The notes: generated from the sequence alone by a model not told the origin. A stretch of DNA of 45,341 nt from Catajapyx aquilonaris (GCA_000934665.2 JYFJ02003183.1:1-45341); one strand, 5' to 3'; shown: positions 14,082-41,075, numbered from the stretch's first letter. Made by a program: numbers and translations.

Positions 14082-15095
14082 ATGACTGCCAGAAAAAAAT
14101 TCCTCAAGACAGCAGATGTGAAGACATTTAGTTTCAATTGGACCATTGAAAATTACGAGCCCTATGGAATGGATGACAAAAAGATTACATCTAATTCATT
14201 CACCATCAGTGGATTGGAGTCAACAAAATGGAAGCTGGTGCTTCATCCCAATGGCAAAGCAGATAAGAATGAGGGTCACATATCTCTCTTCCTTCATTGC
14301 TTGTCTGATGTGGATGATTTCCAATTCCCTGCCAAATTTTCCCTCACCATTAGGAGTACCAATGACAAAAAGGATTACACTGGCAATTTTACAGAGATTC
14401 ACACCTTCTCCAAGCGTCGTCGGTCTTGGGGCTTTCATAAATTCATTAAAAACAAATACTTGGAAAAGAGAGCTTCTGACCTTCTTCCAAATCGTACCCT
14501 CACATTGATTTGCACAGGGGATCTTATGTTGGATGTGGATTGTAAAAAGACAGCTGATGTTTGTGGCCTTGGATTGCTGGAGGATACGAAGTGCATGCTG
14601 GAGTCTCAGGTTGGCAGGGATGTAACTCTGGTTGCAAGGGATGGAACAGAACTTCCAGTGCACAAGGTCATTCTGTGTGCCCAAAGCCCTGTGTTTGCAG
14701 CCATGTTTGACCAAGATACTGAGGAGAAGAAGACTGGGAGGGTTGTCATCAAGGACTTCAATTCAGATGTCCTGAGAGGCCTCATTAGCTTCATGTACAC
14801 AGATGAAGCCCCTGAAGATGTGACGGAGCTGGCCATGGATCTGCTGATTTCATCACACAAGTATCAGATCCCACGTCTTCAGTTTCTGTTGGTGAAGCAT
14901 GTCAGCACCACTTTGATTGTTGAAAATGTACTAAGCATTTTGAGTCATGCCGTCTTACTTGACTTGCCAACACTGAAGGATGGGTGCTTGCAGTTCATCA
15001 AGTCAAATGTAAAGGGGGTGACAGAGAGTCAGTCTTGGAAGGAGTTTGCTGATGTTGATGCCTTGAAGGTCCTTTTTGAATATGGGAGGAAATAG
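14082..15095 (+). CDS. MATH-BTB protein, copy G3, 337 aa, clade A
   Basis: Intact ORF with FSFNWTI, SWGFHKFI, VHKVILCAQSPVFAAMF and FMYTD. ATG chosen by alignment to G2. Confidence 0.93.
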   Translation: MTARKKFLKTADVKTFSFNWTIENYEPYGMDDKKITSNSFTISGLESTKWKLVLHPNGKADKNEGHISLFLHCLSDVDDFQFPAKFSLTIRSTNDKKDYTGNFTEIHTFSKRRRSWGFHKFIKNKYLEKRASDLLPNRTLTLICTGDLMLDVDCKKTADVCGLGLLEDTKCMLESQVGRDVTLVARDGTELPVHKVILCAQSPVFAAMFDQDTEEKKTGRVVIKDFNSDVLRGLISFMYTDEAPEDVTELAMDLLISSHKYQIPRLQFLLVKHVSTTLIVENVLSILSHAVLLDLPTLKDGCLQFIKSNVKGVTESQSWKEFADVDALKVLFEYGRK

Positions 15096-15180
15096 TCTGC
15101 ACTGGATAGATTTTTGAGATGAAAATGTGTGCTATTATTTGGCCCTGTTCTGGCCTATTGCAACCCTTTTTTTATTATTG

Positions 15181-15393
15181 AATTTCAAGTCTCAAGCAAC
15201 AGAACAAATTACGTGAAACATCGCCCCTTAAAGCCATAAACATTCAAACTAAACAGAGTAGATTGGGCTGTTTCATTTATTCCTGTATGAATAAACGAAA
15301 CAGCCCAATCTACTCCGTTTAGTTCGAATGTTTATGGCTTATTTATGGAGCGATGTTTCACGTAATTTGTTCTGTTGCTTGAGACTTGAAATT
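15181..15393. repeat. Inverted duplication (hairpin, ~100-bp arms, 6-nt loop) in the G3 3'UTR
   Basis: 15181-15282 is the near-perfect reverse complement of 15289-15393. G2 has only the right arm. Confidence 0.9.
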
Positions 15394-15610
15394 TTCAAAT
15401 GTGATTATTTAATGCTGTGTATCAGGCTATGGCTAATGGTTATTAAAGATGAAATTTCTAACATGTAGTTTTCTTTTGTTACATTCAAGATGTAATAACA
15501 GTGAAAACCAAAGGGTCAAAGTGTGTGTTTGTAAACCTTCAGGAGTTAAGCTGGGGCCAAATTACAATCAGATAATGTTTTATAGAGTGTTCTCAAAGGT
15601 CATCCTTATA

Positions 15611-15813
15611 CAGTAAAACCTCCATATAACGCTCTTTACCTGTGGGGACCAGGAATACCGAGCTGTCTATGTGGGAAAGCGTTGACAGCAGGAAGCGCTA
15701 TAAGCTGGAAAATTTACTATTGCGCCTTATGAGGCTGATCAAGGGACTGGAAAAAAGGAGTGTTAATAGCGGGAAAGCGTTATATGCAGGATCGTTATAT
15801 CGAGACTTTACTG
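15611..15813. mobile_element. pogo/Tigger-like MITE (duplicate of 8967-9152)
   Basis: TA|CAGTAAAACCTC...GAGACTTTACTG|TA at the homologous position. Confidence 0.75.
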
Positions 15814-16589
15814 TACTTAATTTTTCAGGTAATACGGTACTGTATATTATTCAAGGCCGATTCTGGTCCACAGTCCGTTCCTCTGTCTAATTTTCTCTCA
15901 TCAGGGTGTCCAACTGTAATTATACGGTTGAGTCGAATACGGTGAGAATATCAGGCCTTCTGGGGTAGGTAATTCTAATTAGCTAATTATGCCTCAATGC
16001 TACAAAATTGCGGAATGATAAAAAGGTGCATGCATTAAGCTATCTAATGTGAATATTTTGCGCTGCTCAGGGGATTCCCCTCTCCCCACTCTCGCATGAT
16101 TGATGGACCTTGTTCTTTGTCAACTATCTCAAGGTTACTCCTGGGCAAGAGGAAAAGGATACTGGCTGAAAAAAAAGGCAGGCGTTTTTTGGGTGTGTCA
16201 ATCGCGGGTGTGGACTGCAGCGTATGCTGTCAGTTTGGATAATATGGTGGGCAAGTTTCTACAACACATGGAGAGAGTGCCTGCAAAACTATATTTAGTT
16301 GAAGCAGCACTTGGTTATGAAGAAATGTGCTTATTGCTGAAGTGATGACCAGCACATAGTGCTGGGCTCATGTACTGTACAGTACAATGGAACAGTTGAG
16401 TGAATGTTGATAAGTTATGAAGTGACATATTGTGATATAATAATAACGGACTACTTGCTCTCTGTTATTGTATGGAATTAAGCATTTTAATGTTATTTGT
16501 TTCATTGCAGATTGTGGATTGAAGCCACCCGGATTGGCTCCAGGTAAGCTTTCTCTAAGAGCAGGTGACTTCATCCTGGTGAGCATAAA

Positions 16590-17420: not shown

Positions 17421-17567
17421 GTATCATCAGTTCAAAAATAATTGTCCCAGTCATCCTGATGTGTGTGCTGCCTGCTCGACACACACCATGTAACTTACAT
17501 GGTGTGTGTCGAGCGGCCAGCCCACACGTCAGGATGACTGGGACAGTTCTTTTTGCACTGTTGATAC
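17421..17567. repeat. Palindromic element (~70-bp arms)
   Basis: Symmetric around CATGTAACTTACATG (~17493), e.g. TGTCCCAGTCATCCTGA / TCAGGATGACTGGGACA. Confidence 0.75.
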
Positions 17568-17976
17568 AGTGCTGGCCAAATTAGCCGTCGCTGAATGTTT
17601 TTTTTCGGCGGCGACGGCGGCGGTGTTACCTGGCAACCCCGTCCGGCGGGCCAATTCAAACATCAGCCCATGGAGAGCGCTTCCATTGTTGCCACTGTTT
17701 ACAAATCGAGTGAGTGACCCCAAAATGACTTATTGCTTCGAACATCATTATTTTTCCCGTTTTCTCCTGCCTATCCCTGCAGATACTGTGTGAGCAGACA
17801 GAAGAGACCATCGCTGGGTCGTCCACGTCACTCACTCGATTTGTAAACAGTGGCAACAATTGGAAGCACTCTCCATGGGCTGGTGTTTGAATTGGCCCGC
17901 CAGACGGGGTTGCCAGGTAACGCCGCCGCCGCAGCCGGAAAAAAACATTCAGCGACGGCTAATATGTCCAGCACTG
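17567..17976. mobile_element. Tc1-like MITE with ~150-bp TIRs
   Basis: TA|CAGTGCTGG...CCAGCACTG|TA, with arms 17567-17718 and 17827-17976. Confidence 0.85.
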
Positions 17977-18846
17977 TACGGTACTATTAACCGCAAAAGT
18001 AACGTCACGACTGTTTATGTGTTGGTAATCCTGGGCGCTGACAGGTTATGATATGTTTATATCGCGATGTTCCGGAATCCACAACACTATGCTCACCAGT
18101 CATGCGGCCACACGGTCCGCGGCGCGGTTTGAGAGAGCTGATACTTATTCGTGCAACATTACTTATTTCTAGGTTATATAGTGTCTGCGTATTTATAAAC
18201 CAGAACCAACTCGTTTATCAGCGATTTAATCCACACTGCAATAAAATAGTACTCCATTAGTTCTGAACATGATTTCACTTGTTCGAAAACATTGTTCTTG
18301 GATCTTGCCGTGCAAATTGGCTGATTCCATTGTGTTATTGCCACTTGCCACACAAAACCAAGACATATCATGCCAGCACCTGGTGGGTTATAATCCAAGA
18401 GGGCTGGTCAGTGAAGAAGACTATACTATTCACTCTCAGAAATGTCCGGGTTAAATATCCATGACAAAAGTGATGTTTTTTTCCCTGGATAAATGTATGC
18501 GACAACAGTCATGATTGTACAAAGGCAGTCATGTGTAAAATTTATTTATTTATACTTGACTGACTTTATACAATCATGACTGTTGTCGCATATATTGATC
18601 CAGGGAAAAAAACATCACTTTCATCATGGATATTAACGCAGACATTTCTTAGAGCGTAACCTGATATGGGAACCCAGCCTAACCTGACTCTGACGTAATA
18701 GGTTCACGCCTTTCGCCTGAAGGTACAGTTGACGGAAATCTGCCGAACGCACCTCTGGAACCTTCCACTCTTCCTGTTTCCAGGGGTATGCCTTCATGCA
18801 GCAATAGGAGCAATTACTCCTATTGTTGCATGAGGGCAATGATAAT

Positions 18847-19311
18847 AGGCGTATTCGGCAATTCAGGAATCTGACTTCCTGGGCTGTTTGGATGTTCGGC
18901 AAATCAGGTGCCACGCCCCCTGAAGTAAGTGCGCATGCGCCCTACCTGACTTCCCAAGCTCAGGAACTTAGTGTACTCCTGACCTGACTTACTTGCTGAG
19001 AAACAATTAACAAACAAATTATTGTTATGGATGCAGCAGTGTTGCCAATGCAAAATGCCCCAAAACCCCGCGAGAGGACCTGAAAATACCCGATTTTACC
19101 CGCATTTTCATTTTACCCGCACCATTACCCGCAAGCGTCCGAAATACGGCACCGAAATACCCGAACATTGGCATATCACTGGGATGCAGCACAGGCGGGT
19201 AGGGGGGGTCTCTCAGTTCGGCCGTTCGGCAATAATCTTCTGAGGGACAGGGCTAACAACTCAGATATCACGTGACGCATCGCAGAATAATCTGAATTGC
19301 CGAATACGCCT
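18847..19311. mobile_element. TIR MITE (Harbinger-like termini)
   Basis: AGGCGTATTCGGCAATTCAG / CTGAATTGCCGAATACGCCT, flanked by duplicated AAT (or TAATA). Confidence 0.7.
19037..19181. mobile_element. hAT-type MITE
   Basis: CAGTGTTGCCAATG...CATTGGCATATCACTG with an 8-bp TSD GGATGCAG (19029-19036 and 19182-19189). Confidence 0.85.
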
Positions 19312-20097
19312 AATAGAACACTGTTTTCTCCTATTGTTGTGTGAAGTGAATTTCCATGGAAAAAGGAGGAGTGGAAGGTTCCAGAGGTGCATTTGGCAGA
19401 ATTCCATACCCTATAACTTGGAAAACAAATGTGTTACTTCGCAGTCAGCATGTTAGGCTTGGTCCCCTACAGTATTTTGGTTAACTACTGGGCATTTCAT
19501 TTCATTTGCCAATGTCCGGCGCAACATCTGAAGTTTGTTAGGTTTATAAAAAAACTAGTTGATGATGACTGCAGTGTTGTTGATGCCAACCTGCCTGTCA
19601 ATCTGTCTTATACTGTACTATTTTATTGCAGTGTGGATTAAATCGCTGATAAATGAGTGGGTTCTGTTTTATAAATAGCCAGACTCTACATACACTAGAA
19701 ATAAGTAGCAGGAATAAGTAGCGGCAAGAGTAAGTAGCGGCGCTCTCAAACCTCGACCGGGACCATCCGGCCACGTGACCATGGGACTTGTCATATCTGG
19801 GGGGAAAAAGCAAACAACTTAATTATCTGTTATAACCTTATCCACGCAAAAAATGTAATTTTAGTTTTTATGCAAGTGCAATGAGCTTATGACAGTACCA
19901 GGAGCTTACCACCATTACAGTTGGATGACCTCTCACATTAAATCTCGCTTTATCCTCCACTAACCCGATGTATTTATTCTTGACTATTAAACTACCTGCA
20001 AAACTTTTGGTTTTTATCCCCTGTACTCACATTAAGTGGGGGCATCACGAAGCCCTTTTGTTTACCGGCTCCTCTTGTGGTATGGGCAGCATCTATA

Positions 20098-21507
20098 CAG
20101 GGTGTATCAGAGTCACGGGTCAAGCACGCACGGGGAAAAATCGTAGGTGGCGATAACACCGGTCAGTTTTATAAAACAATTAGAAATAAGGGAGTAATCG
20201 ATTTTTAATTACGGCATTATGGCGTGACGTCATGTCCTTTCCGTTCGAATTGAGAAGCGCGGAAAGATGAGTACGGTGCGTACAGCGGCTCTCTAGCCGT
20301 GCCGGTTGCACTGAACAAGGTGCTCTCATGCTCTCCCGCCTTCCCACGCAAAGCATTGGGCCGGGCTTACACCTCGGTAACCCCTCTTCGTGACCTGTCC
20401 ATGCAACGGTGCACCAAGAAATGGCGGAGGATGTCGAGCACCGATGTCTCTGTACAGGCAGGAATGACAGCAAGCATACCATGTAGATGTCCTCCTCATC
20501 GAAACATCACGAAGAATGTTTCTTGCGGTGGACAGACTGCTGTGTGAGGCCGGTACCGGCTAGTACATTGCGAGCCAGGCAAGATACGTCAGGTACGTAC
20601 AGTAGTACAGTGTGTTGTACACCAGTACTGTAACAGTGCTGTATTGCACAATGCACCTCGGACCGCACGTGCAATGGAGGAAGACGTTCTGGACATGGTA
20701 GCCATGGACCCATCAATCAGCACCCATGAAGTTGGTAAGCGTACTGTCCGTACGCATACCATGACCACAGCAAATCCTGGAACTTGCGTGCGCCCATTCG
20801 CTCGGATGCTGTCATGGATGATCCTTCACACATTGGGATGAAGGCTGTGCACTCTACACCCGACTTCACGGGTGCTGGTCGATGGGTCCATAGCTACCAT
20901 GTCTAGAACGTCTTCCTCCATTGCCATGGTACGTGCGGTCCGAGGTGCATTGTGCGATACAGTACTGTTACAGTACTGGTGTACAACACACTGTACTACT
21001 GTATGTACCTGACGTATCTTGCCTGCCTCGCAATGTACCAGCCGGTACCGGCCTCATGCAGCAGTCTGTCCACTGCAAGAAACATTCGTGATTTTTCGAT
21101 GAGGATGACCTCTCCGCGGTATGCTTGCTGTTATTCCTGCCTGTACAGAGACATCGGTGCTTGACATCCTCCGCCATTTCTCGGTGCACCGTTGCATGGG
21201 CAGGTTGCGAAGAGGGGTTGCCGAGGTCCAAGCCCGGCCCCATGCTTTACGTGGGAAGGTGGGAGAGCATGAGAGTGCCTGGTTCAGTGCAAGCGGCAAG
21301 GCTAGAGAGCTGCTGTACGCACCGTACTCGTCTTTGATGCTTCTCGATTCGAACGGAAAGGACGTGACGTCACACTGTATTGCCTTAATCAAAAATCGAT
21401 TACTCCCTTATTTCTAATTGTTTTATAAAACTGCCCAAGGTTATTGCCACCTACGATTTTTCCCCACCCCCTCGTGCGCGCTTGATCCGTGACTCTGATG
21501 CACCCTG
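20098..21507. mobile_element. 1.4-kb fold-back derivative of a Tc1/mariner transposon
   Basis: TA|CAGGGTG...CACCCTG|TA with ~630-bp inverted arms. Each arm ends in a transposase HTH remnant (PRTAR..MEEDVLDMVAMDPS.ST.EV). Confidence 0.85.
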
Positions 21508-21822
21508 TATACCAGATCAAATTGTAATTTCCAAGCTTCAAAACATAGCAAAGTTCATCTCTGTATGTGTTACTGTTTTTGAATTTTAAAAATACTCACA
21601 ATGACTTTTGACTCAGCCCATGTAACTTCAAAGTCATTGGGTCAGAGATGACCAAAACATGATGAATACAATCTTTATTATGTCTCCTATGATGAGAACA
21701 AGGCAATAGTATATTTTTTTTTCTTCCCAATATCATAAATGTGTGGAGTACAGGGTTATAAGGTGAAGTCAACTAATATTATTTCTTCGCATAATCCCTT
21801 TTTCTCAGATACTTGCTTAAAA

Positions 21823-22866
21823 ATGGCTGTGGCACGAGCACAACACCAAGTCACTGCTCCAAAAGTCCAGCCAATCTTCTTCCGGTGGTCCATCAAGAAC
21901 TACAGCATGCTGAAAATCAAAGATAATATTTCCTCTGTTCCATTTACCTCTGGTGATTCTGTGACTCCTACCTCATGGCGGATTCAAATTTTGGGCCAAG
22001 ATGATAATAGGCAAAGTCTGATGGCATACCTGACGTACCTTCCACGTCACAAAACTGATTTCATAGTAACAGCTAAGTTTACTCTCAGCATTGGGAACTT
22101 TTTCTCCTATTATGTGTATTCAGGGCAATTTGAATTCTCTGCAGATCGTTTGCGCTGCGGAGGTAATCTCATATCCTTCTCAGACTTGGAAAAATGTTCA
22201 AAGAAACTACATGTCCTTCCAAGGGATACCCTCACCATTACTTGCAAAGGAAAGATTATGTGTGGGTTTCGCAGTGGGCCCCAAGTAGTTCCTATTGACA
22301 TTGATATTGTTGCTCCTGGATTATCCACTGACATGAAGCATCTCTTGAAGTCCGGCAGAGATAGCGATGTGAAGTTGATGGCAGGAAGATCTTCATTTCC
22401 TGTTCATAAGCTCATTTTGATTGCTCGAAGTCCCGTGTTTGCTGCCATGTTTAACCATGACACCCTGGAGAATGAGACAGGAGAAGTAGTTATCAAGGAT
22501 GTAAAACCAAAGGTGTTGGAGAGTCTGATTTACTTCCTGTACACTGACGAATCGCCCCCAGATCTGTCCGGAATGGCCACGGAGCTTGCTGCAGCTGCAC
22601 ATAAGTACATGCTTCCTCGTCTCCAGTCAATGTGTGAGAAGCACCTTGCAAATGCTCTCACAGTAGATAATGTTATTGACAGGTTGGGTGTTTGCATTAT
22701 TTACAACTACTCCAACAAACTGGAGAAGGCTTGCTTGCAATTTGCCAAGTCAAACTTGAAGGAGGTGCAAGAAAGCAAGTCATGGAAAGCAGGTCTCCCT
22801 GTGGAAATCGTCCCTCCTCTTTTTGAGTTCTGCAGTGTGACATGTGACATACCACCTTCGTGTTGA
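21823..22866 (+). CDS. MATH-BTB protein, copy G4, 347 aa, clade B (divergent MATH)
   Basis: IFFRWSIKNY, WRIQI, LMAYLTY, LPRDTLTITC, then VHKLILIARSPVFAAMF, FLYTD and AAHKYMLPRL. Acceptor ends at 21808; ATG at 21823 by alignment to G6/G7. Confidence 0.93.
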   Translation: MAVARAQHQVTAPKVQPIFFRWSIKNYSMLKIKDNISSVPFTSGDSVTPTSWRIQILGQDDNRQSLMAYLTYLPRHKTDFIVTAKFTLSIGNFFSYYVYSGQFEFSADRLRCGGNLISFSDLEKCSKKLHVLPRDTLTITCKGKIMCGFRSGPQVVPIDIDIVAPGLSTDMKHLLKSGRDSDVKLMAGRSSFPVHKLILIARSPVFAAMFNHDTLENETGEVVIKDVKPKVLESLIYFLYTDESPPDLSGMATELAAAAHKYMLPRLQSMCEKHLANALTVDNVIDRLGVCIIYNYSNKLEKACLQFAKSNLKEVQESKSWKAGLPVEIVPPLFEFCSVTCDIPPSC

Positions 22867-23858: not shown

Positions 23859-24284
23859 GTAATTGTGCTAATTCAAAACAGTAAGACTTATTTTTCAGTC
23901 ACGAACAACTGCTGCCTGAACAACTATTTACAGATTTTCCATGCAATATGTGGAGACGAGTCATACTCCCATACAAACTCTTTTTTAAAAAGCTTTCAAC
24001 AGGTGTAATATTTTGACTCACATTCACTAGTACTAATCCAATTTTTTACACGATTATACCACGAGTTTCAGAATAATTATTAACTTAATTAATATCTGGC
24101 AGACACTTGTTTCCATCGTCAGGACCCGTCGCGCGCCGAATACCTTTTAATGTACCGCCTGAGTTAGATGCACTGTTAATAAGCTCAATTTAATGGGCTT
24201 TAAATGTTATACATAACACACACCGAGTTTGACTTGGTGAGGCGAGCGTACGTTCAAATTTAATCCTTTGCGAATGACAGCAAA

Positions 24285-24441
24285 TGTGAGCCACCCTGTA
24301 CAGGGCTCATTGCGATCCACGCCTCATTGGTTCATTCCGGTCCGTTCCTCCCATCCAGACGACATTTTGTTTTATCAACTGAACTGAAAACGTCTCTCGC
24401 TTGAGCACCTCTGGCTTTTCAGACAAATTTGATGGGTAAGT
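24285..24441 (+). promoter_or_regulatory. Conserved promoter/first-exon block, cassette 5, directly upstream of the MEP-1-like gene
   Basis: Close match to 4914-5049 (GAGCCACCCTGTA...GGTTCATTCCGGTCCGTTCCTCCCATC.GACGACATTTT), with GTAAGT donor at 24436. Confidence 0.65.
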
Positions 24442-24639
24442 CCAGAATAATTGGACCTAATTAAGGGCAGTCTGCATGCTTAACTTTATGTGGTGGGCAA
24501 CACGTACTTAGGCTGTACAATAAGCCATTATAGTATTGGGAAAATAATGATTTGTCTTGCTCATCACACTATGCATATTATGCAAGTAGGCTATGCAGGG
24601 ATAAAGGCATAATGAGTTGTAATTTACCTCTAACTTCAG

Positions 24640-27600
24640 ATGCACCACATGGCTGCACCTAGCAGAGAGCTCGAACCAGCTGTGGTCCTATCGGAAGATG
24701 ATGTGTCCATAGGTGAACCAGGTACGTGTCGAATCAAGTGCACCAAAGAAACAGAAAAAAAAACCTTACAGAAATATTGCTCCATTGCAGGTGAGCCGCA
24801 ATTGAATGGCGAGATGATCAGCTCTTCTGATGGTGACCCAGTTGACGGGACTTCCGGGACACAAAAGCTCGATAGTGAAGACGGAGCTGAAGAAGTTGGT
24901 ACTAAGCGCACATGGTTAAGTTCCCCACTAACTAAATCTGACAATAGTGATTGTGAGTTGGACTCCAGTCCAGATGCAGGTGGTAATGGTGTCTCAGCTG
25001 GCAGTGGGGAAGGTGAACAGACAGTTAACAAGGACACTGATGAGAAGTATATTCACGACGATGATGATTGGAGTGTAGTTATGTCGAGTGGTGATGAGGG
25101 AGAGCAGGAGACCTCAGACAATGAGGTTGAGGAAGTGAAAGATGAAGACGCGGAGGACCATGATCCTGACGACATCAGTTCTGACAGCGGTGGAGAACAA
25201 GATGCAAGCAATGGAACTGGCAGCCAGCTATGGGAAGGTAGTCAGGCTGTCATATTGGCTTTGGCCAGGTTAAGTGGAGAGACTATGCGTGACTCAGGGG
25301 TAGTTGCAGATGAAGGTGCAGAATCTGACAGTGGTGCTGGGGGTGATGATCTAGAACCTATGCCACTTATAGACAGTGACAAAGAGGACAATGAAACAGA
25401 AGAAGCCACTGAAGATGTTGAGAAGGGATCTCTAAGTCGAAAGGAAGGTGCACAGGACAGTTCTGTAAATGTTGCCACATCTCGTAAGACTCGTAGTGAG
25501 AAGCTGACTGGAGAGCGGCAGGAAGAAAGTGATGATGATATAATAGAAGAGAAACTTGTGGAAAAGAACGAGCCTATGAAGCACAGTTCAGTTACCCGAA
25601 AGCAAGATGATGATCCTGATGTCCAGGCTGTAGATCCTGTGGATCCTCTAGCAGACCCACGAGAAGTTCCTGATGTCCAGGCTCCTGTGGATCCTCTAGC
25701 AGACCCTGTAGTTATAGTAGATACCAATTCAATTTTGTCTGGAAAAGGTCCAGTTCCAGTGAACCTTGGAATGTCAACCACATCTACAACCACTTTGCCA
25801 CCAACTTCACTGCCATCACAGTCAATCTGTAGGATACGAAACATCCCAATCCACACTGGATCTGGCTTGACTGCAGGAGGGACCAACCAGCGACAGTCAT
25901 CATCAGCAACGTCCATGTCTGTAAAAGTTACTCACGAGTGGCCAGGTCTTTCAGACGATATGTTTGTAGTTGAATCACCTAGTTTCATAGTTCCATACGT
26001 TTATGAAAAGCCACCTAAAGAGAGTGTGAAAGAGTTTTGTAGCAGATTGGAGAAGAGTGGGAAGGGTGAAGAGGAAAAAAAGGGTGAAAGTAGTCAGGCA
26101 GAAAAGGACAAAGCGGAGGATGACAAAGTGACTGATAAGGAAGAACGTAAGAACAAGTTGCTGTATCCTCATGACAACTTCTTCGACAGTTCACTGGGCA
26201 AGTTCTTTATTCAGACTGGAATGAACTTGGTGCAGGAATATGTCCAGACAGACTTGCTGCGGGCTGTAAAGCGTAAGGCAGAGCGTGAAAGGGAGAAGAC
26301 CTCTGCTGCCACCCAACATGCAATCTCATCCCTCTTGCGTAACCTTGAAGATTCAAAAGAGAACAATGAGCCTTTCCACTTTGAAACCAAAAAGTGCGAA
26401 TTTTGTAACTTTAAAACTGAGTCGACTCTTGTCATGGCACGGCACCTGGAGACCCCACACATGCGCTTGTACACATACCGTTGCAATTTCTGTCCCTTTG
26501 AAACTCGCTCTCCACATGACATATTGTTTCACATGGAAGCAGAACACAATGTTAGAGGACATTTGGAAAGAGCCCCAGCTTTTCATCAATGTGTAAACTG
26601 CTCTTTTGAGGACAATTCAAAGATTAAGCTGAGCCGACATATACTGTCATGTATGAAGAAGTTCCGTCATGACTGGACTCAGGAGCCAATTACTTCTCAC
26701 AGGGAGCTGCCAGCCAAGATTTATCACGTTTCACAGGGACATCCCGCAACTCTAGGGCCTCGATTTGCCCCAATTAAGCCCACACCTGCAACAATGGCCC
26801 ACCCACTGATGTCCAAGCAGGCCCCAGCCCCTGTTCGTTTCACTCCGGCACCAACACTCATTCCTCTTCGAGGACGTCCACCTGGGCCTGCCACACTGGC
26901 TAGCAAGCTTGGGGTAGATGCCCGTACCCTTCCCTCCAGGTCACTGAGCTCAGCCAGTCACATCCGACCAGGTCAGTGGGCATAACCATGGCAGTGAGAT
27001 TTTGAATGTATATGTTTGAAGGACATGACAATTTTCTTTCCGCAGGAATGATTTACCGACCTCCATGGAGCCAGGTGCATGTCCCTTCATCGTTTGCATT
27101 TAAAAACAACTCTATTTACCCGGTAAGTAATTCTTGTTCTGGGTGCACTTTTCCAATACCAAAGTGTGATTTCTGGGGTTCTTTTAGATTGTGACATTCA
27201 GTAGTTACATGTGCAGTTGTAGCCACTTACCCATGCACTTCTGCATGTGGTTCAGTGGTTGCGATGTCAGTCTTAGTCTCTCACTGCTGTCTGTTATCTC
27301 TTTCGCATGTTAAACTTGTAGGTGGTAAATCGCCCAGGTCATATGGTACCGGTGATGACTGGTGGACCGATCAACGTGCCTCGCCTAGCGTTAATGCCCT
27401 CTGGAGTCGGCGGCTCAGGCGGAGGTGGGGCCCATGTCCCCATGGCCCTCATCCCCAACCTCACTTCGGGAGCCATATCCATCACCATACAAGTGAGAGC
27501 CATGACATAGTAGTTGTGGGTGGGGCGAGGGTCTTGGGGGCTATTTAGAACTGAGCGTGACCTAAATGACAAGAAAACAAAACCCATGACCTTTCAGAGT

Positions 27601-28619
27601 GCATTGAACAGGACCATATTGCCCAAGGCACCACAGCAGCCCAGCATCTCCATCACACCCTTGCCGAGGCAGACAGCAGCAGCGCCTGTGTCACTGAGTT
27701 CCATCGCACAGGGAAGTTCTCCCAAGGCAACTACACCCAGCAGTTCAGCACCCAGGCCCAAGACTACGTTGGTCATCTGTGAAATATGTGATGGATATAT
27801 CAAGGTAAGTTCTGGCCCCATAATCGGTGATTTGTACATTAGGATTTCAGACCACATATCTGATCTCCATCAGTCAAAATGATGAAAAAATGATATACTA
27901 TACTTAGAAGATGTTTAACTGTTTTTCACAGGGCTTGGAGCAACTGCGCACCCATATGCAGTGGGTACACAAAGTAAAGATTCACCCGAAGATGTTATAC
28001 AAACGGCCCCCTCTTAACTGCCAGAAGTGTCAGTACCGCTACTTCACGGACCAAGGTCTGGAGCGCCACTTGCTGGGCTCACATGGGCTGGTCACCTCAA
28101 GTATGCAGGAGGCTGCCAACAAAGAGCAGGATGGTGGACGATGTCCAGTGTGCAGAAAGGTAAGAGATGACACTTAACTTTTCTGAGGAGAGGGACATTC
28201 ATAAATGCTTGTTACAGGAGTATCAGAGGAAATTGCTAAATCATGTGGCCAAAGACCACAATCTGACACTGAAGCCAGCATACTTGTCCTACAAGTGCAC
28301 TCTCTGCACTGCTACATTTGGCATGTACAAGCAATTTGAGTACCACGTCTACTCAACTCATAACGCCTTAGCAAAGCCTGGTGATAAGAAGGGAGGAGAT
28401 GTGAAGTTCATGCCTACTTCCTCATCCGCACAACATTTGCTATCACAATCGCAATCCCTACTAAAACCGCTTAAAATCACAGATGAGATCACTATCATTC
28501 CTCAACCTGTGAAGTCAAGTCCAACTCCATCCTCAACAGCATCAACTGCTATCACCGGTGAATCAAGCCGTAGCACCAGCCTGGTACAGGGTCAACAAGA
28601 AGTTGAAGTGTCAGGTTAG
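24640..28619 (+). CDS. MEP-1: MEP-1-like C2H2 zinc-finger protein (Mi-2/NuRD/MEC partner family), ~1,138 aa, six coding exons
   Basis: Exons 24640-26971, 27046-27122, 27322-27492, 27598-27804, 27932-28159 and 28218-28619, all GT-AG and phase-compatible. Family motifs FVVESPSFIVPYVYEKPP, GMNLVQEYVQTDLL, HMEAEHNVRG.LER.PAFHQC, VICEICDGYIK, HMQWVHKVKIHPKM, FTDQGLERHLLGSHGLVTSSMQ, LSYKCT.CTATFGMYKQFE. The 3' end is uncertain (possible donor at 28615). Confidence 0.9.
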
Positions 28620-28806
28620 TAGTTACACTGGGACGTGATGAGTGGATTGCAAAGACAAGGTTGTGAACTAGGGTGTAAGCACTATCTTGCTAGACCAGAT
28701 TTGGCCACAGCTTTAATCCACCTGTAAGTGCGCCTTTGGGATGGGTTTCCGACCATGGGTGTCCTATCTCAAATTGCTTTCCTAGGCAGCCCCTAACATC
28801 CTAGTA

Positions 28807-29561
28807 CCATATTACCTCACTTATCGCGGCATTCCGGTATGAAACGAGGTCGACCTCATACCGGTATAACCCACGGGAAGCCGGCATCCCGCAATACCCG
28901 AGGTAGATTTCCATTATTTGTATCCTTGTGAAATTTTTTGGAATGCATCTGATACTGTACTAAAATAATGTTACAGTGAAAAATGTGCGAGTACAGGGTT
29001 GTGAGAATGCAAGTTCATTTGTTGCACAGGGACCAATCCGAATGTCAGCCTGCTCCGAGAGGGGAACCCCCGAAACATTACAAAGGATCAAGGCAAATTC
29101 CTTCAGTCCTTCATGTTGCTATCAATAGTTCGCTGGTCGCAGATCTCGTTGACAATCAGAGGATCACTGTGCCGGATCACTTTGCGTAGTGGGATGAATA
29201 TTTGTCTGAGAAGTCTCGTCACTCTGATAATAAAATCCAAACCAAAGTACTCGTCTGTAATATCCTGGTAGGTATGCTTCCCTTCTAGCAGCCTTGCACT
29301 TTTAATGGAAAATGTTGCCGTAAAATTTGAACTTAACAAACGATCTTATGGGATGTGTCAGGCGATAGAAGTGTCCTGGGCTGTATCCGTACCGTAGAAC
29401 ATGGTGTAATGCATTCCTTTGAGTAATAATAATTTTCATAGAGCTCGTGTAAGAAAACCTCGCCTTATACCGGCATGCCGGTATAGCCACCAGATCGAGC
29501 ATTTCTGAAAACTGGTCAACCTCTCCTACACTGGCATGCTGCAATAAGTGAGGTAATCCGG
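28807..29561. mobile_element. TA-flanked TIR element (Tc1/pogo-type)
   Basis: CCATATTACCTCACTTATCGCGGCAT vs ATGCTGCAATAAGTGAGGTAATCCGG, with TA on both sides. Confidence 0.65.
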
Positions 29562-29664
29562 TAGTTAGCATCATAGTAACCCATATTTAATTTTCCTACT
29601 AAAGGAATATCAAACAAATGTCGCTTTGCCAATTAGAGACACCAATTTTACAATTACTGTTAGT

Positions 29665-29985
29665 CATATATTCGCTTTGCGAAATGATTGAGGGGTTCTA
29701 GGCAATCAGTTTAAGTTCCTGCAGCATGGGTCTCCGCCGCAGAGTTACAGAGATAATGGGCTTCAAACACAAGGTAATTTAATTTTAATTTACGATCCTA
29801 TTAGGTGTAGCAGGGAATGGCCTAGGTGACGGAAGTGTCGTAAGCTGTATCCAAAACCTGCAAGCCTGTATAATATACTTTTTATTTTATGCTAATTATC
29901 TCAGTAACTATGCTGCAGAGACCCATGATGCGACCACTTCAACTGATTGCCTAGAACCCCCCTATCATTTCCCAAAGCGATCGCA
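29665..29985. mobile_element. MITE with ~90-bp imperfect TIRs
   Basis: GGGGTTCTAGGCAATCAGTT / AACTGATTGCCTAGAACCCC and CATGGGTCTC / GAGACCCATG. Ends are approximate. Confidence 0.6.
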
Positions 29986-30259
29986 TGACAAAACGTCTTC
30001 ACCTGTATATGGAGTGGAACCCAAATTGTCGTAATTATAGTAAGTGTACCTGTGCAACAGAGCTCAATACATGAAAATTACAGATGTAATCTTCTTGGGC
30101 TCATTTTAATTTTCTTATGGTTGAACCTATGGTTGAACTTAAGGTAGATTCTACATATGAAAGATAATGACAGCATTATTATTTCTGTGCAGTGGAAGTA
30201 ATGCATTTGTTTCAGAAAGTAATAATTTTTTTGTTCCTGCTTTCCACAGGTTGGTAAAA

Positions 30260-30788
30260 ATGAATACCAGACAGCAACTCTTCATAACAGCAGATGTTAA
30301 GCCATTTTGTTTTCAATGGACCAGTGACAGCTACAAGCCTCGTGGATTAGATAAAGAAGAGTGAATACATCTTCTCCGTTCACCATCAGTGCATTAGAGT
30401 CAACACAATGGGAGCTGGAGCTTCATCCTAATGGTTACACAGATGAGGATGATGGTCGTATTTCTTATTACATTTGTTGCTGTCTGATGTGGATGATTTC
30501 GAATTCCCTACCACATTTACCCTCACCATTAGAGTACCAATAACAAAAACACTTGGGGTGTTACATAGTTCCGCATATTTTCCAAGCAAAATGCGACTTG
30601 GGGCCTGTCTCCGTTCATTAATATCAAAGTCTTGGAAGATCGAGCATCTGAACTTCTTCCAAGTGGTACCCTGACCTTGATTAGCACAGGGGATGTCATG
30701 TTGGATCTGGATTGTAAAAAGACACCTGAAGCTCATGGCCCTGGATTGTCTGAGGATGCAAAGTGCACTGGAGTCACATGTTAGCAGG
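30260..30788 (+). pseudogene. Decayed MATH-BTB copy G5 (clade A), BTB domain deleted
   Basis: MNTRQQLFITADVKPFCFQW, PFTISALESTQWELELHPNG and SDVDDFEFPTTFTLTI lie in different frames with stops. Homology ends at ESHV, and paralogous 3'UTR sequence resumes at ~30930. Confidence 0.9.
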
Positions 30789-31475
30789 GCAGGGCAGCTG
30801 ACCATTTTCACCTCCTGTTCACTCCACGTCTATCCTATGTTTGTTTTTTAGTTTTTTTTTTACTGGGAGCAGTTCACTTGCTGTTTTTTTGGTACTTTGT
30901 AATATGTAACTGTATAACTTCTGTTCATTGGATTGGGTGTTGATGTGTTTCACTTAAATCGTTCTCCGCTGACTTGAGGCTCATAAGGAGTGACCTTTAT
31001 TTGTCCTTCTGATTTTAATCGTATTTTTCTCCTTTTTTGTTATGTACTACCCAATTTGGTGTGTTTAGACCTTCAGTGAGGAAGTAATAGTCTGCTTTGG
31101 TAAATTGTCATTCAGATTTTTTATGTGGAACTTTCTCAAAGGACATAACTTTACTCCATGCTGCACTACATAATGTGGTGTGAGAGAGTTTTGTAATGCA
31201 TATGTTCACGGCGTATATCAGTACTTTTTTTAATTTTGTATTTATTTGGTGGCATTTTTTCTGTTATTTTCCAGGCGTGCATATTTCTGTTGGAATTTAT
31301 TCCAAATGCACTTAGCCTTCACGCAACTATTCAGTATTTGGATCTACATTCGTAGAAGAAAAGAGTTGAAGTTGCTTGGAATTTATGATTTTTGTATTCA
31401 TTTTTATTTTTGAGAGTGTGTTTTCAAACTTTGTCTAGTCAGTGGACTTTTAAATTTCCACAATCTGTACACCCC

Positions 31476-31481
31476 AATAAA
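31476..31481 (+). terminator. Putative polyadenylation signal of cassette 5
   Basis: AATAAA followed by the conserved ...GAACTGATCCAAA. Confidence 0.55.
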
Positions 31482-33434
31482 AATATTGAACTGATCCAAA
31501 GTACCAAATGTCAGTACAAACGACCTTTTTTTTTTACAATGAAAGGGAGAGCATCAAACAGACGGAAGATGCTAAGTGTCATTTTAAATGCAGGTGTTCA
31601 TAGCTGTATGCTTACTGACACCTGTGTCTGATGATGTGCTACAAAAAACTTCCAATTAAATTTAAATACAATTAAAATAATTATGTACAGTTGCAAGTCA
31701 TGATAATTATTATCAGGTAAAGCAGAATCCTATTATTATCATGGAAAATATCCTTACCCCGTAGATTCACCAGCAAATTCCAAAACTGTTCCTCATCGAC
31801 AATTCAACATTCCTGGTCAGTTTCTCCTTCTCATTCCCTCTCATCAGGGTGTCCAACTGTGATGAAACTATTAGTTCGAATACTATACAAATATCAGGAC
31901 ATAATTATGTGTAGGTGATTTTAATTAGGCAAAAAATATGGCTCGCTACCGTATTACGAAATCATAAAAATGTAGTGTACATTCTTTAAGCCATCCTACG
32001 GGGATTCCCCACTCATAATATGAGTTCTGCATGGACTTGTTTTTGTCTCAAGGTTTTACTACTGCGCATAAAGCAGTGAAGCACTGGCAGAAAACACAGG
32101 CCCAGGCATTTTAAGGCGTGTCACTCGCTGGATGCAGACTGCGGCCAATGTTTGGAGTTGGAATCTGGCATACATGAAGGTAAGTTTAGGCAAAACATGC
32201 AAAAGGTTTTTCACAAAAGGTGTAAATGAAAAAAAAAGTGCTAATTAGTGTGAATTTTATGCTGAGGTGATGACCAGTACATTATTCTGTGGTCACCTAC
32301 TGTACGCTAGAAAAGTTGAGTAAATGTTCATGAGATTTGAAGACACTAATTATTGTCATCATCGTCGTTGGAATGAATGTGTGGTGTTTAATTTATTGGT
32401 TACATAATTTTTATGATACTCTGCATTACAATGCTTTGTTGCATTACAGATTGTGGTTTAGCAGTGGTCCAGGTAGTAGCAACAAATTGGCCGTAGGAAA
32501 GCTTTTCGCAAGTACAGACGACTCGATCCTGGTGAGTATAAATAATAATCTTTAAACTTACCGTACTCAAATAATATAGTCAAATCACATTTTCATTACT
32601 CGAGAAATAAATTAAATTTCAACATAACCTGTGCATTAGCAGTACTGTACGTGATTATCTAAAACAATAGCTGATAATTAAGGGTTAATAGGAGTTCACT
32701 TTTCAAACTGTTTGTGCCACTGGCATTGCCATTTGTATCCAGAGAGAGGAGCCAAGGGTGGTGTCATCATATTTTATCACTAGTACAGTATACATACGGT
32801 GATCTAGTTTATTATGCTGTAATTATTGTATGGTATTGCAGTGTGAATATGTTGGCAGATTGTCTCCCATTGCTGTTCCACATACAGGGTGCTCCGACAA
32901 GGAAGAAAAACTTTCATTGCAGAAATGAATCAAATGATTAATATTTTTCTTTGTTGCACTAAAAATGTTTTTACTTATTTTTGTATTTGAATCCGAAAAG
33001 TTACTGCTGGTCTTTGCACACGAATAGCCTGAGACTGCAAAAGTAGCATCGAAAAATTGCAGGCTTATTATTTTTTCAGACTGTGCTGTGTGTAAGTATG
33101 GCTTTTCCTGTACTTAAAAATATTACGAATGATACATAATAATGTACCCCTGTAATTACCACATACACTGTGCATGAAACATCCAAATATTGTCTGGAGA
33201 CGTAAAAACAACGTGTACCACAAGCATGTTGTTTGTCACATATACTCATTGTCAGTGGGGACTGGTAGAATATGCATATATGTTACGTTAGTACAGTACA
33301 ACTGAATTGTCTTTGCTTGTTGAAACACTACTGGATGAACGTAGGGTACTGTACTCTATAATTATAAGCATGGGTCTTCATTGCCAGACCGATCCAAATA
33401 TCTGACATTTAATCATTTGCCTGTAATTCAATGG

Positions 33435-34063: not shown

Positions 34064-35086
34064 ATGACTGAACCACAAGGTCAGCACAATGTCACATCTC
34101 CAGAAGTGCAGCCAATCTTCTTCCAGTGGTCCATCAAGAAGTACAGCTTTTTTAAAACTCGAGCTAAGATTAGCTCTGGTCCGTTTACCATTGGTGATTC
34201 TATGACTCCCACCACATGGATGATTGATATCTTCGGCCAAGATGGTACTAGGCAGTATCTGATGGCATACCTGACTTACCTTCCACTTCACAAAACTGCA
34301 GAAGATTTCCCAATAAAAGCCAGATTTACTCTCAGCATTCAGAGCGAATTGGAGAAAGTTTTTTCTTTGGATTCAGAGCTGGTCGAATTTTCTGCAGGTA
34401 ATTTGACCCATGGAGGTAATGTTATAACCTTCACAGACTTGGAAGCTAATGAAGCAGCCCTGCTTCCAAATGATACCCTCACTGTTACTTGCAAAGGAGA
34501 GATTATGTGTGGGTTTCGCAGTGAGCCCCAAGAGGTTCCTATTATTGAGATTGCTGCTCCTGTATTATCCACTGACATGAAGCATCTCTTGAAATCCGGC
34601 AGAGGTAGCGATGTGAAGTTGATGGCAGAAGAATCTGCATTTCCTGTTCACAAGGCCATTTTGATTGCTCGTAGCCCTGTGTTTGCGGCCATGTTTGAAC
34701 ATGACACCCTGGAGAATGAGACAGGAGAAGTAGTTATCAAGGATGTGAAGCCACAAGTGCTGGAGAATCTGATCTACTTCCTCTACACTGACGAGGCACC
34801 CCAAGATCTCCCGGAAATAGCCACGGAGCTTGCTGCAGCTGCACAGAAGTACATGCTTCCTCGCCTCCAGTCAATGTGTGAGAATCGCCTTGCAAATTCT
34901 CTCACAGTGGACAACGTTATTGACGTGATTGGTGCATGCCTGTTCTGCAACTACTCAAACAAACTGAAGAAGACTTGCTTGCGGTTTGCCAAGTCACACT
35001 TGAAGGAGGTGCAAGAAAGCGAGTCCTGGAAAGCAGGTGCCCCTGGGGAAGTCGTCAAAACTCTTTTTGAGTTCTGCCATGTGTAA
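34064..35086 (+). CDS. MATH-BTB protein, copy G6, 340 aa, clade B
   Basis: Intact paralog of G4/G7 with VHKAILIARSPVFAAMF and FLYTD. Acceptor ends at 34049. Confidence 0.93.
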   Translation: MTEPQGQHNVTSPEVQPIFFQWSIKKYSFFKTRAKISSGPFTIGDSMTPTTWMIDIFGQDGTRQYLMAYLTYLPLHKTAEDFPIKARFTLSIQSELEKVFSLDSELVEFSAGNLTHGGNVITFTDLEANEAALLPNDTLTVTCKGEIMCGFRSEPQEVPIIEIAAPVLSTDMKHLLKSGRGSDVKLMAEESAFPVHKAILIARSPVFAAMFEHDTLENETGEVVIKDVKPQVLENLIYFLYTDEAPQDLPEIATELAAAAQKYMLPRLQSMCENRLANSLTVDNVIDVIGACLFCNYSNKLKKTCLRFAKSHLKEVQESESWKAGAPGEVVKTLFEFCHV

Positions 35087-37254: not shown

Positions 37255-37660
37255 CTGGTTCATACCGGTGATTCTGTTGGCAATAATATTGTTCCTCATG
37301 AAGTTGTGTGAGGCAGAGAGAGAGAGATACAGAGCAATAATTTATTCTAATTTACAAGAAAGAGATAAAGCCAGATTGGATTTATTATAAATGTTATTTG
37401 TGCGCCATCCAATGAGCGATTGTGTGGGGAATTCCCTGTGATAAGTTTTTTTTTCCATCTTCTTTTTTCTTTTTTCTTCTTGCTGCATGAATATGAGTGT
37501 TGAGGATTGCACAATATAGACGAAACAGAAAAGACGTACCCGTCCAGGCCACCAAGCTTGCAGGAGAAAGAGGTGACAAAATTCTCGGCTCATTATTGTC
37601 TGCTGGGCAGCCAACATCTTATCCAGTTAAAGCAGGTTAAAGTCACTGTTTTGGGTAAGT
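37255..37660 (+). promoter_or_regulatory. Promoter remnant/first exon of cassette 7
   Basis: CTGGTTCATACCGGT, TTTATTCTAATTTACA and TGCGCCATCCAATG are shared with 42549-42886. GTAAGT donor at 37655 is followed by the same intron start as at 5044 and 24436. Confidence 0.55.
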
Positions 37661-38151
37661 GGAGAATATAAGTTCAGAGAATGAAGGGCAATATCGGTAT
37701 GCTTAATTTTGTCTGGTGGGTGGGCATCAAGCTCGTAGACTACAACTTACTATCCAGTATTTACCATCATGGTGTAGGTCAATAATGTGTGCGCGCAAGT
37801 AATCCATGTTTTATTTCGTCCCATTTTTGGTGTCAACTTACTGTACTGTACCACTTCGTTATTAACCCAGATATGCCCGGAAAAGTTTTTGTTGAATTTT
37901 TGAACTTTCTTTGTTTCTATTAGTTCATATTAGTTCCTGTGCAAAACACAAAAATCGAGATAAAACATTTTTCTGAACTCTTATTGTTTGCGAGAAAATG
38001 GCCATTCCCTATAATTACGGGATGCTAGGAAAATGTAACCTTATAGTATGGTAATTGTGTAGACTGGTGTAGATATGTAGATTGACCCAATCATAATAAT
38101 TAGTGAGTGGGCGGAGACGGATATTATAGGCAACTCTTCTGTTTCCTGCAG

Positions 38152-38731: not shown

Positions 38732-40037
38732 GTTAGTGCAGCCAAATATTGTTGCTCAGTTATTTTTACAAGCATTTCAGTTGTTTGCTGTGTGTACAGT
38801 ACACAGTTGGGGCTGCCACAATAAGATAAGTGCTGTGTTGTACTTTCAACTAACACAGTAATAGTCTCTGAATTCTTCTTGCTTGTTAGATTGCAACTGA
38901 ATTCAGTACACAGGCATTCTCTAAGTAATGTTTATTTATTACTGGACCAGCCTGTACGTTGATCCAAATCCTCAATTGTTTTAAAAATGCATTAAGTCGT
39001 GTTTACATGTGAGCGATTTGATCAGCTATGTCATCTCAGAGCGATGAATCCAATTGTCTGGGGCAAAAATCGATTGTTACTTTCGCCCCAAACACTTGGA
39101 TTCATCGCCCGGCAAATTGATGCTCACATATAAACACATTTATATGTTCATTACATGGCTTTTAATTAAATCCCATTTTCTAATCACATGGAGGTTCAAA
39201 TATATGATCAACATAATATATGAGTGACCTATCAAAATGCCATGTGAAATTGCCGAAGTTAACTTGCGTAATTTTGTCTTAGAAAATCTCGATAGAGGTT
39301 GCAATAAGAATTTGCAATGGTGACTTTATATGGAAAAACCTGGGTAACTAGCCTATATCCACTTGTACTTAAGTTTGCAGACACTTGAAACGACTATTAG
39401 CCTACAATTTGACACTCTCTGGTCAAAACATGTGCTGCATAATTATGTACTTAATTATGCCTGTGATGCATCGTTTCTGTGCATACAATTTCATTACACT
39501 TTCATTAAAGTGTGTAGTAACAAGGTCATGAAATATATGACTCCCTTGCTCAAGGTAACCCTAGAATTTTCCAATCATGAGGGTCAGTACAAGTACCTTA
39601 GCATGCAGTGAAGCAAATTCAGAAAAATGCTCGGTATAGCCATAATTATATCCTCAGATATTTTTTCATAATTTTGCGCAAGTGCAATTCACTTTTGACA
39701 GCGTCTGGGAGCTGAATATGATGGTACTGTTAAACAACCTGATGAAATGAATGACAACTTTATCTTGTATTAACCCGATGTAATTTATTATTGACTAAAC
39801 CACCCACTGTGGTGCCCTCAGGAAATCCTTTGTTGTGGTTGCATGACTTGTTGACCAAGTTTTGTCTTTAATGCATGATCTTGCTGAAAAAAAGGGATAC
39901 TTCGGCAGTAAGGTACTTGGTTGATTCATGTAGGATTGCATTATATTTGCACCTGCATTTCACTTGTAGATCCTTTAAGCAGGAATTAAGTGTCGTCCTC
40001 ACCATATACTGCCTTCTTTTCAGAAGCATGTGTGAAA

Positions 40038-41075
40038 ATGGCTGAGCCACTTGGACAGCACATTGTCACTACTTCAGAAGTGCAGCCAATTTTCTTCCAG
40101 TGGTCTATCCAGAACTACATCTTTTTCAAAACTAGAGCTAAGATTAGCTCTGATCCATTCACCACTGGTGATTCTGTGACTCCTACGAGTCCTACCACAT
40201 GGATGATTGAAATTATTGGCCAAAGTAGTAATAGGCAGAGCCTTGGGGCAAACCTGACTTACCTTCCACGTCGCAAACCTGCAGATGATTTCCCAATAAA
40301 AGCCAGATTTACTCTCAGGATTGAGAGCGAATTAAAGAAAGTTTTCGCTTGGGATTCAGGGCTGGTTGAGTTTTCTGCAGATAAATTGACTCATGGCGGT
40401 GATCTTATAACCTTCACAGACTTGGAAGCTAATGAAGCAGCCCTGCTTCCAAATGATACCCTCACCATTGCTTGCAAAGGAAAGATTATGTGTGGATTTC
40501 GCAGTGGGCCCCAAGAGGCTCCTATTGACATTGAGATTGATGGTCCTGGATTATCCACCGACATTAAGAATCTCTTCAAGTCTAGCATAGGTAGCGATAT
40601 GAAGTTGATGGCAGGAGAATTTGCGATTCCTGTTCACAAGGTCATTTTGATTGCTCGGAGCCCTCCGTTTGAAGCCATGTTTGAAGAAGACACACCAGAG
40701 AATAATGCAAGTGCAGTAGTTATCATCAAGGATGTGAAGCCAGAGGTACTGGAAAGTCTGATTTACTTCTTGTACACTGATGAACCACCCCCAGCTCTGC
40801 CCAAAATGACCTTGGAGCTTGCTGCAGCTGCACAAAGGTATATGCTTCCCCGCCTCCAGTTGATGTGTGAGAAGCACCTTGCAAATACTCTCACCGTAGA
40901 CAATGTTATTGACACGTTGGGTGCTTGCCTTACCTGCAACTACTCTAACAAACTGAAGGAGGCCTGCTTGCAGTTTGCCAAGTCAAACTTGAATGAGGTA
41001 AAAGGAAGCGAGTCCTGGAAAGCAGGCCCCGCTGTGGAAGTTGTCACTGCTCTTTTTGAGTTCTGTACTGTGTAG
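40038..41075 (+). CDS. MATH-BTB protein, copy G7, 345 aa, clade B
   Basis: Intact paralog of G4/G6. Acceptor ends at 40023; ATG at 40038 by alignment. Confidence 0.92.
   Translation: MAEPLGQHIVTTSEVQPIFFQWSIQNYIFFKTRAKISSDPFTTGDSVTPTSPTTWMIEIIGQSSNRQSLGANLTYLPRRKPADDFPIKARFTLRIESELKKVFAWDSGLVEFSADKLTHGGDLITFTDLEANEAALLPNDTLTIACKGKIMCGFRSGPQEAPIDIEIDGPGLSTDIKNLFKSSIGSDMKLMAGEFAIPVHKVILIARSPPFEAMFEEDTPENNASAVVIIKDVKPEVLESLIYFLYTDEPPPALPKMTLELAAAAQRYMLPRLQLMCEKHLANTLTVDNVIDTLGACLTCNYSNKLKEACLQFAKSNLNEVKGSESWKAGPAVEVVTALFEFCTV

Follow-up and report, generated by a model that had tools for sequence, protein, structure and literature searches.

The question raised by this locus is how a complete gene for the zinc-finger protein MEP-1 came to lie inside an array of MATH-BTB genes, and how it would be expressed from there. 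We analysed a stretch of 45,341 nucleotides (nt) from Catajapyx aquilonaris (GCA_000934665.2, JYFJ02003183.1:1-45341), which we call the window and in which the part of interest extends from 24,285 to 31,481. As the original prediction had it, MEP-1 sits in a MATH-BTB cassette whose resident gene has decayed: the window is a regular tandem array of such cassettes, and an intact, full-length MEP-1 gene occupies the leader-intron position of one of them, upstream of the remnant of that cassette's own coding exon (G5), which has six stops and no BTB half. We take these observations to be real and well beyond chance. The reading that we favour, to which we give a probability of roughly 45%, is that MEP-1 arrived in the leader intron at the DNA level and would now be transcribed from the cassette promoter.

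In the window, which is eukaryotic DNA, the introns are short and of the GT-AG type, and the G+C content is around 40%. The window contains seven MATH-BTB coding exons of A or B type (G1 to G7, Table 1), all on the + strand, and self-comparison revealed a common unit layout, in which a 5' module and a leader intron of 2-6 kb precede the only coding exon and a 3' untranslated region (3'UTR) follows it. The stretch from G3 to G4 is collinear with that from G5 to G6, and the succession of the promoter-like block of the 5' module (P) and G2 is paralleled by P, MEP-1 and G5. Furthermore, a leader-intron block is common to G1, G2, G3 and G6 (620-1340, 5219-6085, 12662-13559 and 32388-32875, with 87.5% identity between the second and the third), and this block is missing in the MEP-1 unit.

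Regarding the MEP-1 gene itself, its seven coding exons give 3345 coding nt and a stop-free frame of 1115 amino acids, and all six introns of the coding region are GT-AG and 58-199 nt long. The protein belongs to the MEP-1 family by its homology along the whole length and by its seven C2H2 fingers, which are arranged as three (residues 563-648) plus four (898-1030). A regular-expression search found the seven fingers intact, with 28 of 28 zinc-binding positions present, and the zinc-finger matches in Pfam were weak and below the cutoff. Residues 6-1089 align end to end with residues 16-1201 of a 1209-residue insect MEP-1, and the LNGEM motif opens the second coding exon around 30 residues from the start, which is the same distance as in many relatives. 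Because of this end-to-end alignment, the seven fingers and the N-terminal placement of LNGEM, we consider the coding region complete at both ends. At the C-terminus the TAG codon leaves a protein ending in VSG, and the relatives end around 13-15 residues past the last conserved motif, at about the same place. The suggestion that a new gene was born here is thus unsupported, since what the locus holds is a complete and conserved MEP-1.

Some variation around the exons of this gene is conceivable. The first intron of the coding region (24722-24790) is 69 nt long, in frame and without stops, so that its retention would add 23 residues; the retained and the spliced forms may both be compatible with the sequence. 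At the donor of the large exon, read-through (26972-26985) meets a stop after four codons. Several database relatives are open reading frames (ORFs) that end at the end of the large exon, and these may be either exon-only gene calls or a short isoform with three fingers.

The large exon matched 540 proteins at E<=0.001, with a best E of 9.6e-98 and identities of 44-64%. Among the 120 matches listed, the entries with names were either insect MEP-1 ('MOG interacting and ectopic P-granules protein 1') or carried automatic names, and the look-alikes found in the atlas were MEP-1 clusters in which arthropods were the commonest taxon. When 12 relatives were placed on the window by tblastn they marked the same exons. 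Nevertheless, the protein database holds no close relative, the best identity being 64%, and in a quick tree with 17 named and 21 unnamed insect-type sequences the protein was placed outside every one of them, the long branch leading to it measuring 2.7. This would point to either a distant and poorly sampled lineage or fast evolution.

Three of the exon junctions (IRPG/MIYRP, GYIK/GLEQLR and CRK/EYQ) are contiguous in the alignment with the relatives. Furthermore, several ORFs that group with a cockroach sequence in the tree have their stop a few codons beyond the IRQG residues, where the large exon ends here, which fits an ancient intron site in common with the insect relatives. As predicted, therefore, MEP-1 is not a retrocopy, because it has kept its introns, six of the GT-AG type with three junctions confirmed by contiguous homology. 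We rejected a retrocopy origin on these grounds, together with the intron site held in common with insects and the lack of any A-run after the MEP-1 stop.

Upstream of MEP-1, the 5' module is homologous to those of the host family, as promoter capture would require. Positions 24288-24380 match 4914-5004, upstream of G2, with 86% identity over 93 nt (E 1.5e-24), and 24283-24345 match 42494-42566, downstream of G7, with 78% identity; these three are the clearest 5' modules of the window. Two putative motifs, ATTGG (the reverse of CCAAT) and TTCCGG, were noted by eye in the P block. The homology between the G2 and MEP-1 copies continues through a short exon up to an aligned GG/GTAAG donor and then for around 45-60 nt of intron, and in the MEP-1 copy the donor is GG/GTAAGT, at 24435/24436. 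The donor and the start of the intron recur at 9566-9643 (before G3) and 37593-37720 (before G7). Diverged variants of the 5' module at 9203, 15873 and 31813, the sites where the modules of G3, G4 and G6 are expected, are linked to P by alignment and by weak reciprocal profile hits (E 0.0014 and E 0.0023). In all, 5' modules go with seven cassettes and MEP-1 adjoins just one of them. The upstream part of the module beside MEP-1 recurs in the 42494 copy and the downstream part in the copies of G2 and before G7, and the exon 1 of this module is the only one with an ATG (24432-24434). We also considered the P block as a small-RNA gene or a short interspersed element, and rejected this because an Rfam scan of the whole window gave no match at the gathering score.

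Cassette homology stops at around 24497 on the left of MEP-1 and resumes at 30013 on the right. There, 30013-30260 match 13840-14080, in the intron before the G3 coding exon, with 63% identity over 265 nt (E 4e-18), which bears out the homology claimed for around 30020-30250; from 30085 to 30789 the identity to 13929-14619 is 73% (E 3e-115). Most of the interval from the MEP-1 stop to G5 is taken up by two transposon-like insertions, whose arms, 78-82% complementary, look old. The 142 nt before the MEP-1 ATG, which are AT-rich, had no other match in the window in a sensitive BLASTN search, nor had the 185 nt after the stop or the 96 nt between the transposons. Tandem arrays are prone to misassembly, and such borders might come from a false join inside the repeated array. 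We regard this as highly improbable, because the modules at the borders are only 63-86% identical to their paralogues and so too diverged to mislead an assembler.

According to the favoured explanation, a genomic piece of around 4.3-4.6 kb with the whole MEP-1 coding gene would have replaced the middle of the leader intron. The piece, introns included, would begin 142 nt ahead of the ATG and end a few hundred nt beyond the stop, and it would have come by a DNA-level insertion, duplication or relocation, most likely after the A and B types of the cassette family had split. The MATH-BTB exon of the unit, G5, would have decayed afterwards.

The decay of G5 is plain: it has six in-frame stops in around 530 nt and a frame switch (from 3 to 2 and back), and its alignment to G3, which has 338 residues, covers residues 1-172 only, so that the BTB half is absent and MATH followed by BTB in one open frame is not found. 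On this evidence it is a pseudogene of the MATH-BTB family, and the resident gene is dead. When a nucleotide tree was made from the MATH half, G5 fell inside the A-type clade, together with G1-G3 and with 100% support, apart from the B types; its identity is 77-80% to G2/G3 and around 50% to the B types. Because of this placement, G5 is an ordinary A-type member and not a founder. As G5 is ordinary, as the modules go with seven cassettes and as the shared intron block is missing exactly here, we favour the entry of MEP-1 into an existing intron with loss of its middle, the missing block being the expected trace of the replacement. Taking MEP-1 as an intruder in a pre-existing cassette is probably the most economical reading of these comparisons.

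The direction could also have been the reverse: P and exon 1 would be ancestral to MEP-1, a downstream MATH-BTB exon would have borrowed them as an alternative last exon, and copies without the MEP-1 body would have seeded the array. MATH-BTB genes with a single coding exon would indeed need a leader exon, the 5' module beside MEP-1 looks the most complete, having parts in common with the 42494, G2 and pre-G7 copies, and a tree of the form ((G5,G1-3),B) is compatible with this order of events. However, it requires a repeated and precise loss of the MEP-1 body, and the intron block common to A- and B-type cassettes is absent from the MEP-1 unit. The identities of G5 given above are not those of an early branch, and there is one module beside MEP-1 against seven with cassettes. 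We therefore think the reverse direction unlikely.

Returning to the insertion of MEP-1 into a cassette, transcription would start at the cassette promoter and the donor of exon 1 (24435/24436) would be spliced to the acceptor at 24639/24640. The signals proposed for this splice are present in the sequence, namely a 5' module whose P block is 86% identical to that of G2, the donor at 24436 and an AG acceptor (24638-24639) that abuts the ATG at 24640. The donor GG/GTAAGT and an acceptor with CTAAC and a pyrimidine tract both favour it, and the resulting leader intron of 204 nt would be close in length to the other introns of MEP-1. There is an in-frame TAA two codons upstream of the ATG, and the ATG exon looks like a typical internal exon. 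The nearest sense-strand element to MEP-1 that resembles a promoter is the cassette module, 200-350 nt upstream. Because of this nearest element, the strong acceptor and the in-frame stop before the ATG, we prefer a transcript that would start at the cassette promoter and have a leader intron of 204 nt.

The same few hundred nt bear on a second explanation, in which MEP-1 is an independent nested gene with its own start within 24498-24639, or is transcribed without this splice from further upstream, and the 5' module is a relic or drives a non-coding transcript from exon 1 to G5. The uniqueness and AT-richness of the 142 nt before the ATG speak for it, as do the ATG of exon 1, a handicap in a spliced leader, and a conservation of the P block that does not exceed the neutral level. 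Against it, the whole promoter would have to fit in just 142 nt, and a textbook acceptor with a branch-point motif before the ATG, together with the in-frame stop two codons up, is the layout of an internal exon. We see the nested gene as possible, although on the doubtful side.

Several points weigh against the favoured reading as well. The P block shows no clear excess of conservation over neutral DNA, to judge from dead G5 and G2 (77-80%), and its identity falls from 86% over the best 93 nt to 73% over 189 nt; we rejected constraint on P as proof of its use, because these values are too weak. After the proposed splice, the ATG of exon 1 (24432) would open an out-of-frame ORF of eight codons that overlaps both candidate starts and would damp translation. 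The borders showed none of the marks of an insertion, be it a target duplication, a poly(A) tail or the ends of a transposon. Finally, the inner order of G5 and G1 in the A clade is not fixed (support 32/48), and a history in which MEP-1 was already in the intron before the units duplicated, and was lost from the sister unit P-G2-G4, would cost about as many events.

Regarding the 3' end, we could only partly follow the original prediction. It had MEP-1 spliced from a donor overlapping its stop codon (G/GTTAGT, 28614/28615) to the G5 acceptor at 30249/30250, and the resulting protein would indeed read VSGW before the stop. Nevertheless, this acceptor is one of three candidate AGs before G5 in the leader-intron remnant (30192, 30216 and 30250); its counterpart has been lost in intact G3, and of the three only the AG furthest upstream has been retained by all four A-type copies. 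The capture of a terminator is not needed for the protein, and neither is a splice to G5, because the unspliced ORF stops at its own TAG (28617-28619), about where the relatives end. In the favoured scenario the protein would end at this codon, and the mRNA might end at a non-canonical site, at the AATAAA at 29229 inside the first transposon or at the AATAAA of the cassette (31476), whether or not the transcript is spliced to the G5 acceptors. These two are the only AATAAA/ATTAAA signals from the MEP-1 stop to 31481. The signal at 31476 is present as described, whereas its conservation in position is not supported: in an alignment of five 3' ends a nearby signal was present in G1 alone, where it occupies a different column.

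The absence of decay over 3345 nt, beside a pseudogene with six stops, leads us to predict that MEP-1 is under selection and transcribed, unless it is very young. It could be a young silent duplicate that has not had time to decay, with a working copy elsewhere in the genome, and it would suit this that the segment has neither a promoter nor a poly(A) signal that is obviously its own. The intact ORF and the 28 intact zinc-binding positions argue otherwise, and so do the old-looking transposons and the decayed G5 around it, although these date the neighbourhood and not the insertion. We hold the silent duplicate to be improbable. In another version, MEP-1 here would be the only copy of the organism, and this ancient and essential regulator of chromatin, having lost its own promoter, would be a passenger of a lineage-specific and fast-evolving MATH-BTB cassette, using the cassette promoter, the leader exon and perhaps the poly(A) site; this seems to us rather unlikely. 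Going further still, each unit of the array may be one transcription unit, in which the leader exon could splice to alternative terminal exons, MEP-1 among them. For annotation, if the favoured reading holds, the MEP-1 model should open with a putative non-coding exon at around 24381-24435, and its 3'UTR may extend into the pseudogene.

The domain set of the MATH-BTB genes of the array is MATH, BTB and BACK. In Pfam, G3 matched MATH_2 (E 4.4e-25) and BTB (E 1.3e-23), and both domains were also found in G4. Only 19 database proteins matched the family at E<=0.001, the best with 41% identity over 46% of the query, and the named ones were dipteran 'roadkill-like' or SPOP-like proteins with around 30-40% identity. 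By these searches the family is far from any database protein.

Some further observations concern single units. G2, whose 5' module is the best match to that of MEP-1, switches reading frame at around residue 251 (from frame 3 to frame 1, window 8260-8270), which would make it either a second pseudogene or the site of a sequencing error. Between G2 and G3 there is a tandem duplication, in which 5030-9562 was copied to 9567-16199 with the junction within exon 1 (window 9562-9643); after it, G3 retained just about 12 nt from the end of its leader exon and the donor, and no promoter block. The G3 leader intron also holds an insertion of around 2.9 kb (9778-12641), flanked by long inverted repeats (9778-10581 and 12641-11728) and probably a foldback-type transposon. 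A direct repeat of 92 nt, 98% identical, lies at 11414-11505 and 11575-11666.

In the G4 leader intron (17565-21417) we found inverted-repeat pairs (17565-17718 with 17978-17827, 92%; 18099-18252 with 19779-19615) and mirrored ORFs (20254-20547 on the + strand and 21054-21407 on the - strand), which are probably nested transposons; a Pfam scan of the ORFs 20254-20547 and 20548-20841 gave no match. After the last promoter block (42494), the ORF 44380-45198 matches HTH_32/HTH_29 with scores at the Pfam cutoffs or slightly under them and resembles the N-terminal part of a Tc1/mariner-type transposase. As for other genes in the region, none of ten further ORFs had a Pfam match, among them the antisense ORF 25242-25931 and the transposon ORF 29302-29586.

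Table 1. Position of the MEP-1 gene, its borders and the MATH-BTB genes in the window
Feature	Position	Strand	Remarks
Promoter-like block P of the 5' module	24283-24380	+	Homology to 4914-5004 and 42494-42566
Putative non-coding exon 1	24381-24435	+	Ends at donor GG/GTAAGT, aligned with the G2, G3 and pre-G7 copies
Cassette-derived start of leader intron	24436-24497	+	Homology to 5031-5081, 9580-9620 and 37652-37720
Unique 142 nt	24498-24639	+	Ends in CTAAC, pyrimidine tract and AG acceptor directly before the ATG
MEP-1 coding exon 1	24640-24721	+	ATG at 24640; 27 codons + 1 nt; gene model
MEP-1 large exon	24791-26971	+	Acidic N-terminal region, conserved core, zinc fingers 1-3
MEP-1 exon	27046-27122	+	Junction IRPG/MIYRP contiguous with relatives
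MEP-1 exon, variable region	27322-27492	+	Frame-keeping GT-AG model; weak homology support
MEP-1 exon	27598-27804	+	Zinc finger 4 begins; tblastn, gene model, alignment
MEP-1 exon, zinc fingers 4-6	27932-28159	+	Around 73% identity over 92 amino acids to insect proteins; junction contiguous
MEP-1 last exon	28218-28619	+	Zinc finger 7; stop TAG 28617-28619
Transposon-like insertion	28805-29563	.	34-nt terminal inverted repeats; contains, at 29229, the AATAAA that comes first downstream of the MEP-1 stop
Palindromic (foldback) element, 333 nt	29660-29992	.	122-nt arms with 78% complementarity
Cassette leader intron, remnant of its 3' end	30013-30259	+	Matches 13840-14080, 7402-7514 and 2288-2376
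G5 remnant	30260-30830	+	A-type, MATH half only, dead
Cassette-type 3'UTR	30990-31422	+	67-72% identity to the 3'UTRs of G1, G4, G6 and G7
AATAAA	31476-31481	+	Of the canonical poly(A) signals downstream of the MEP-1 stop, the second in order and the first outside a transposon
G1	2380-3393	+	A-type MATH-BTB
G2	~7510-8530	+	A-type MATH-BTB
G3	14079-15095	+	A-type MATH-BTB, intact, 338 residues
G4	21820-22866	+	B-type MATH-BTB
G6	34064-35086	+	B-type MATH-BTB
G7	~40036-41075	+	B-type MATH-BTB

If the favoured explanation is true, the locus would illustrate cleanly how, in nature, a conserved regulator that bears introns has come under the promoter of an unrelated family by a move at the DNA level, with the host exon decaying. 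It would mean that the relocation of a gene can rewire the expression of an essential gene, and that tandem arrays can be a source of ready-made promoters.

Members of the MEP-1 family bind Mi-2 and have a role in transcriptional repression. The MEP-1 proteins of C. elegans and Drosophila have seven C2H2 fingers, arranged as three plus four, and the protein described here has the same order as these and as other insect MEP-1 proteins, that is, an acidic N-terminus, three C2H2 fingers, a linker and four C2H2 fingers. In worms and flies, MEP-1 is presented as the zinc-finger partner of Mi-2 in the MEC complex (PMC5295584, PMC10074086). However, the genomic setting differs from that of the known MEP-1 genes, since here the gene lies inside a MATH-BTB cassette.

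Lineage-specific expansions of MATH-BTB genes are also represented by the BATH genes of nematodes and the TDPOZ genes of rodents. For grasses, such expansions are described as including pseudogenes (PMC4091423). The array analysed here is like these expansions of SPOP/roadkill-like genes in its tandem arrangement, its pseudogenes and its fast divergence, whereas each of its units seems to have its own 5' module and a long leader intron, and the intron of one unit contains an unrelated conserved gene.

Finally, the capture of a promoter and a leader exon by a gene that lands in a host intron is a known route, mostly described for retrogenes. As in those cases, a promoterless gene body lies within an intron in the sense direction, an acceptor immediately precedes its ATG, and a host leader exon is found upstream. 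Unlike a retrogene, MEP-1 would have moved as intron-bearing DNA and not through its mRNA, the coding exon of the host is dead, and the use of the host promoter is putative. The kind of event is therefore already known, and this is a neat case of it, although ordinary in kind.

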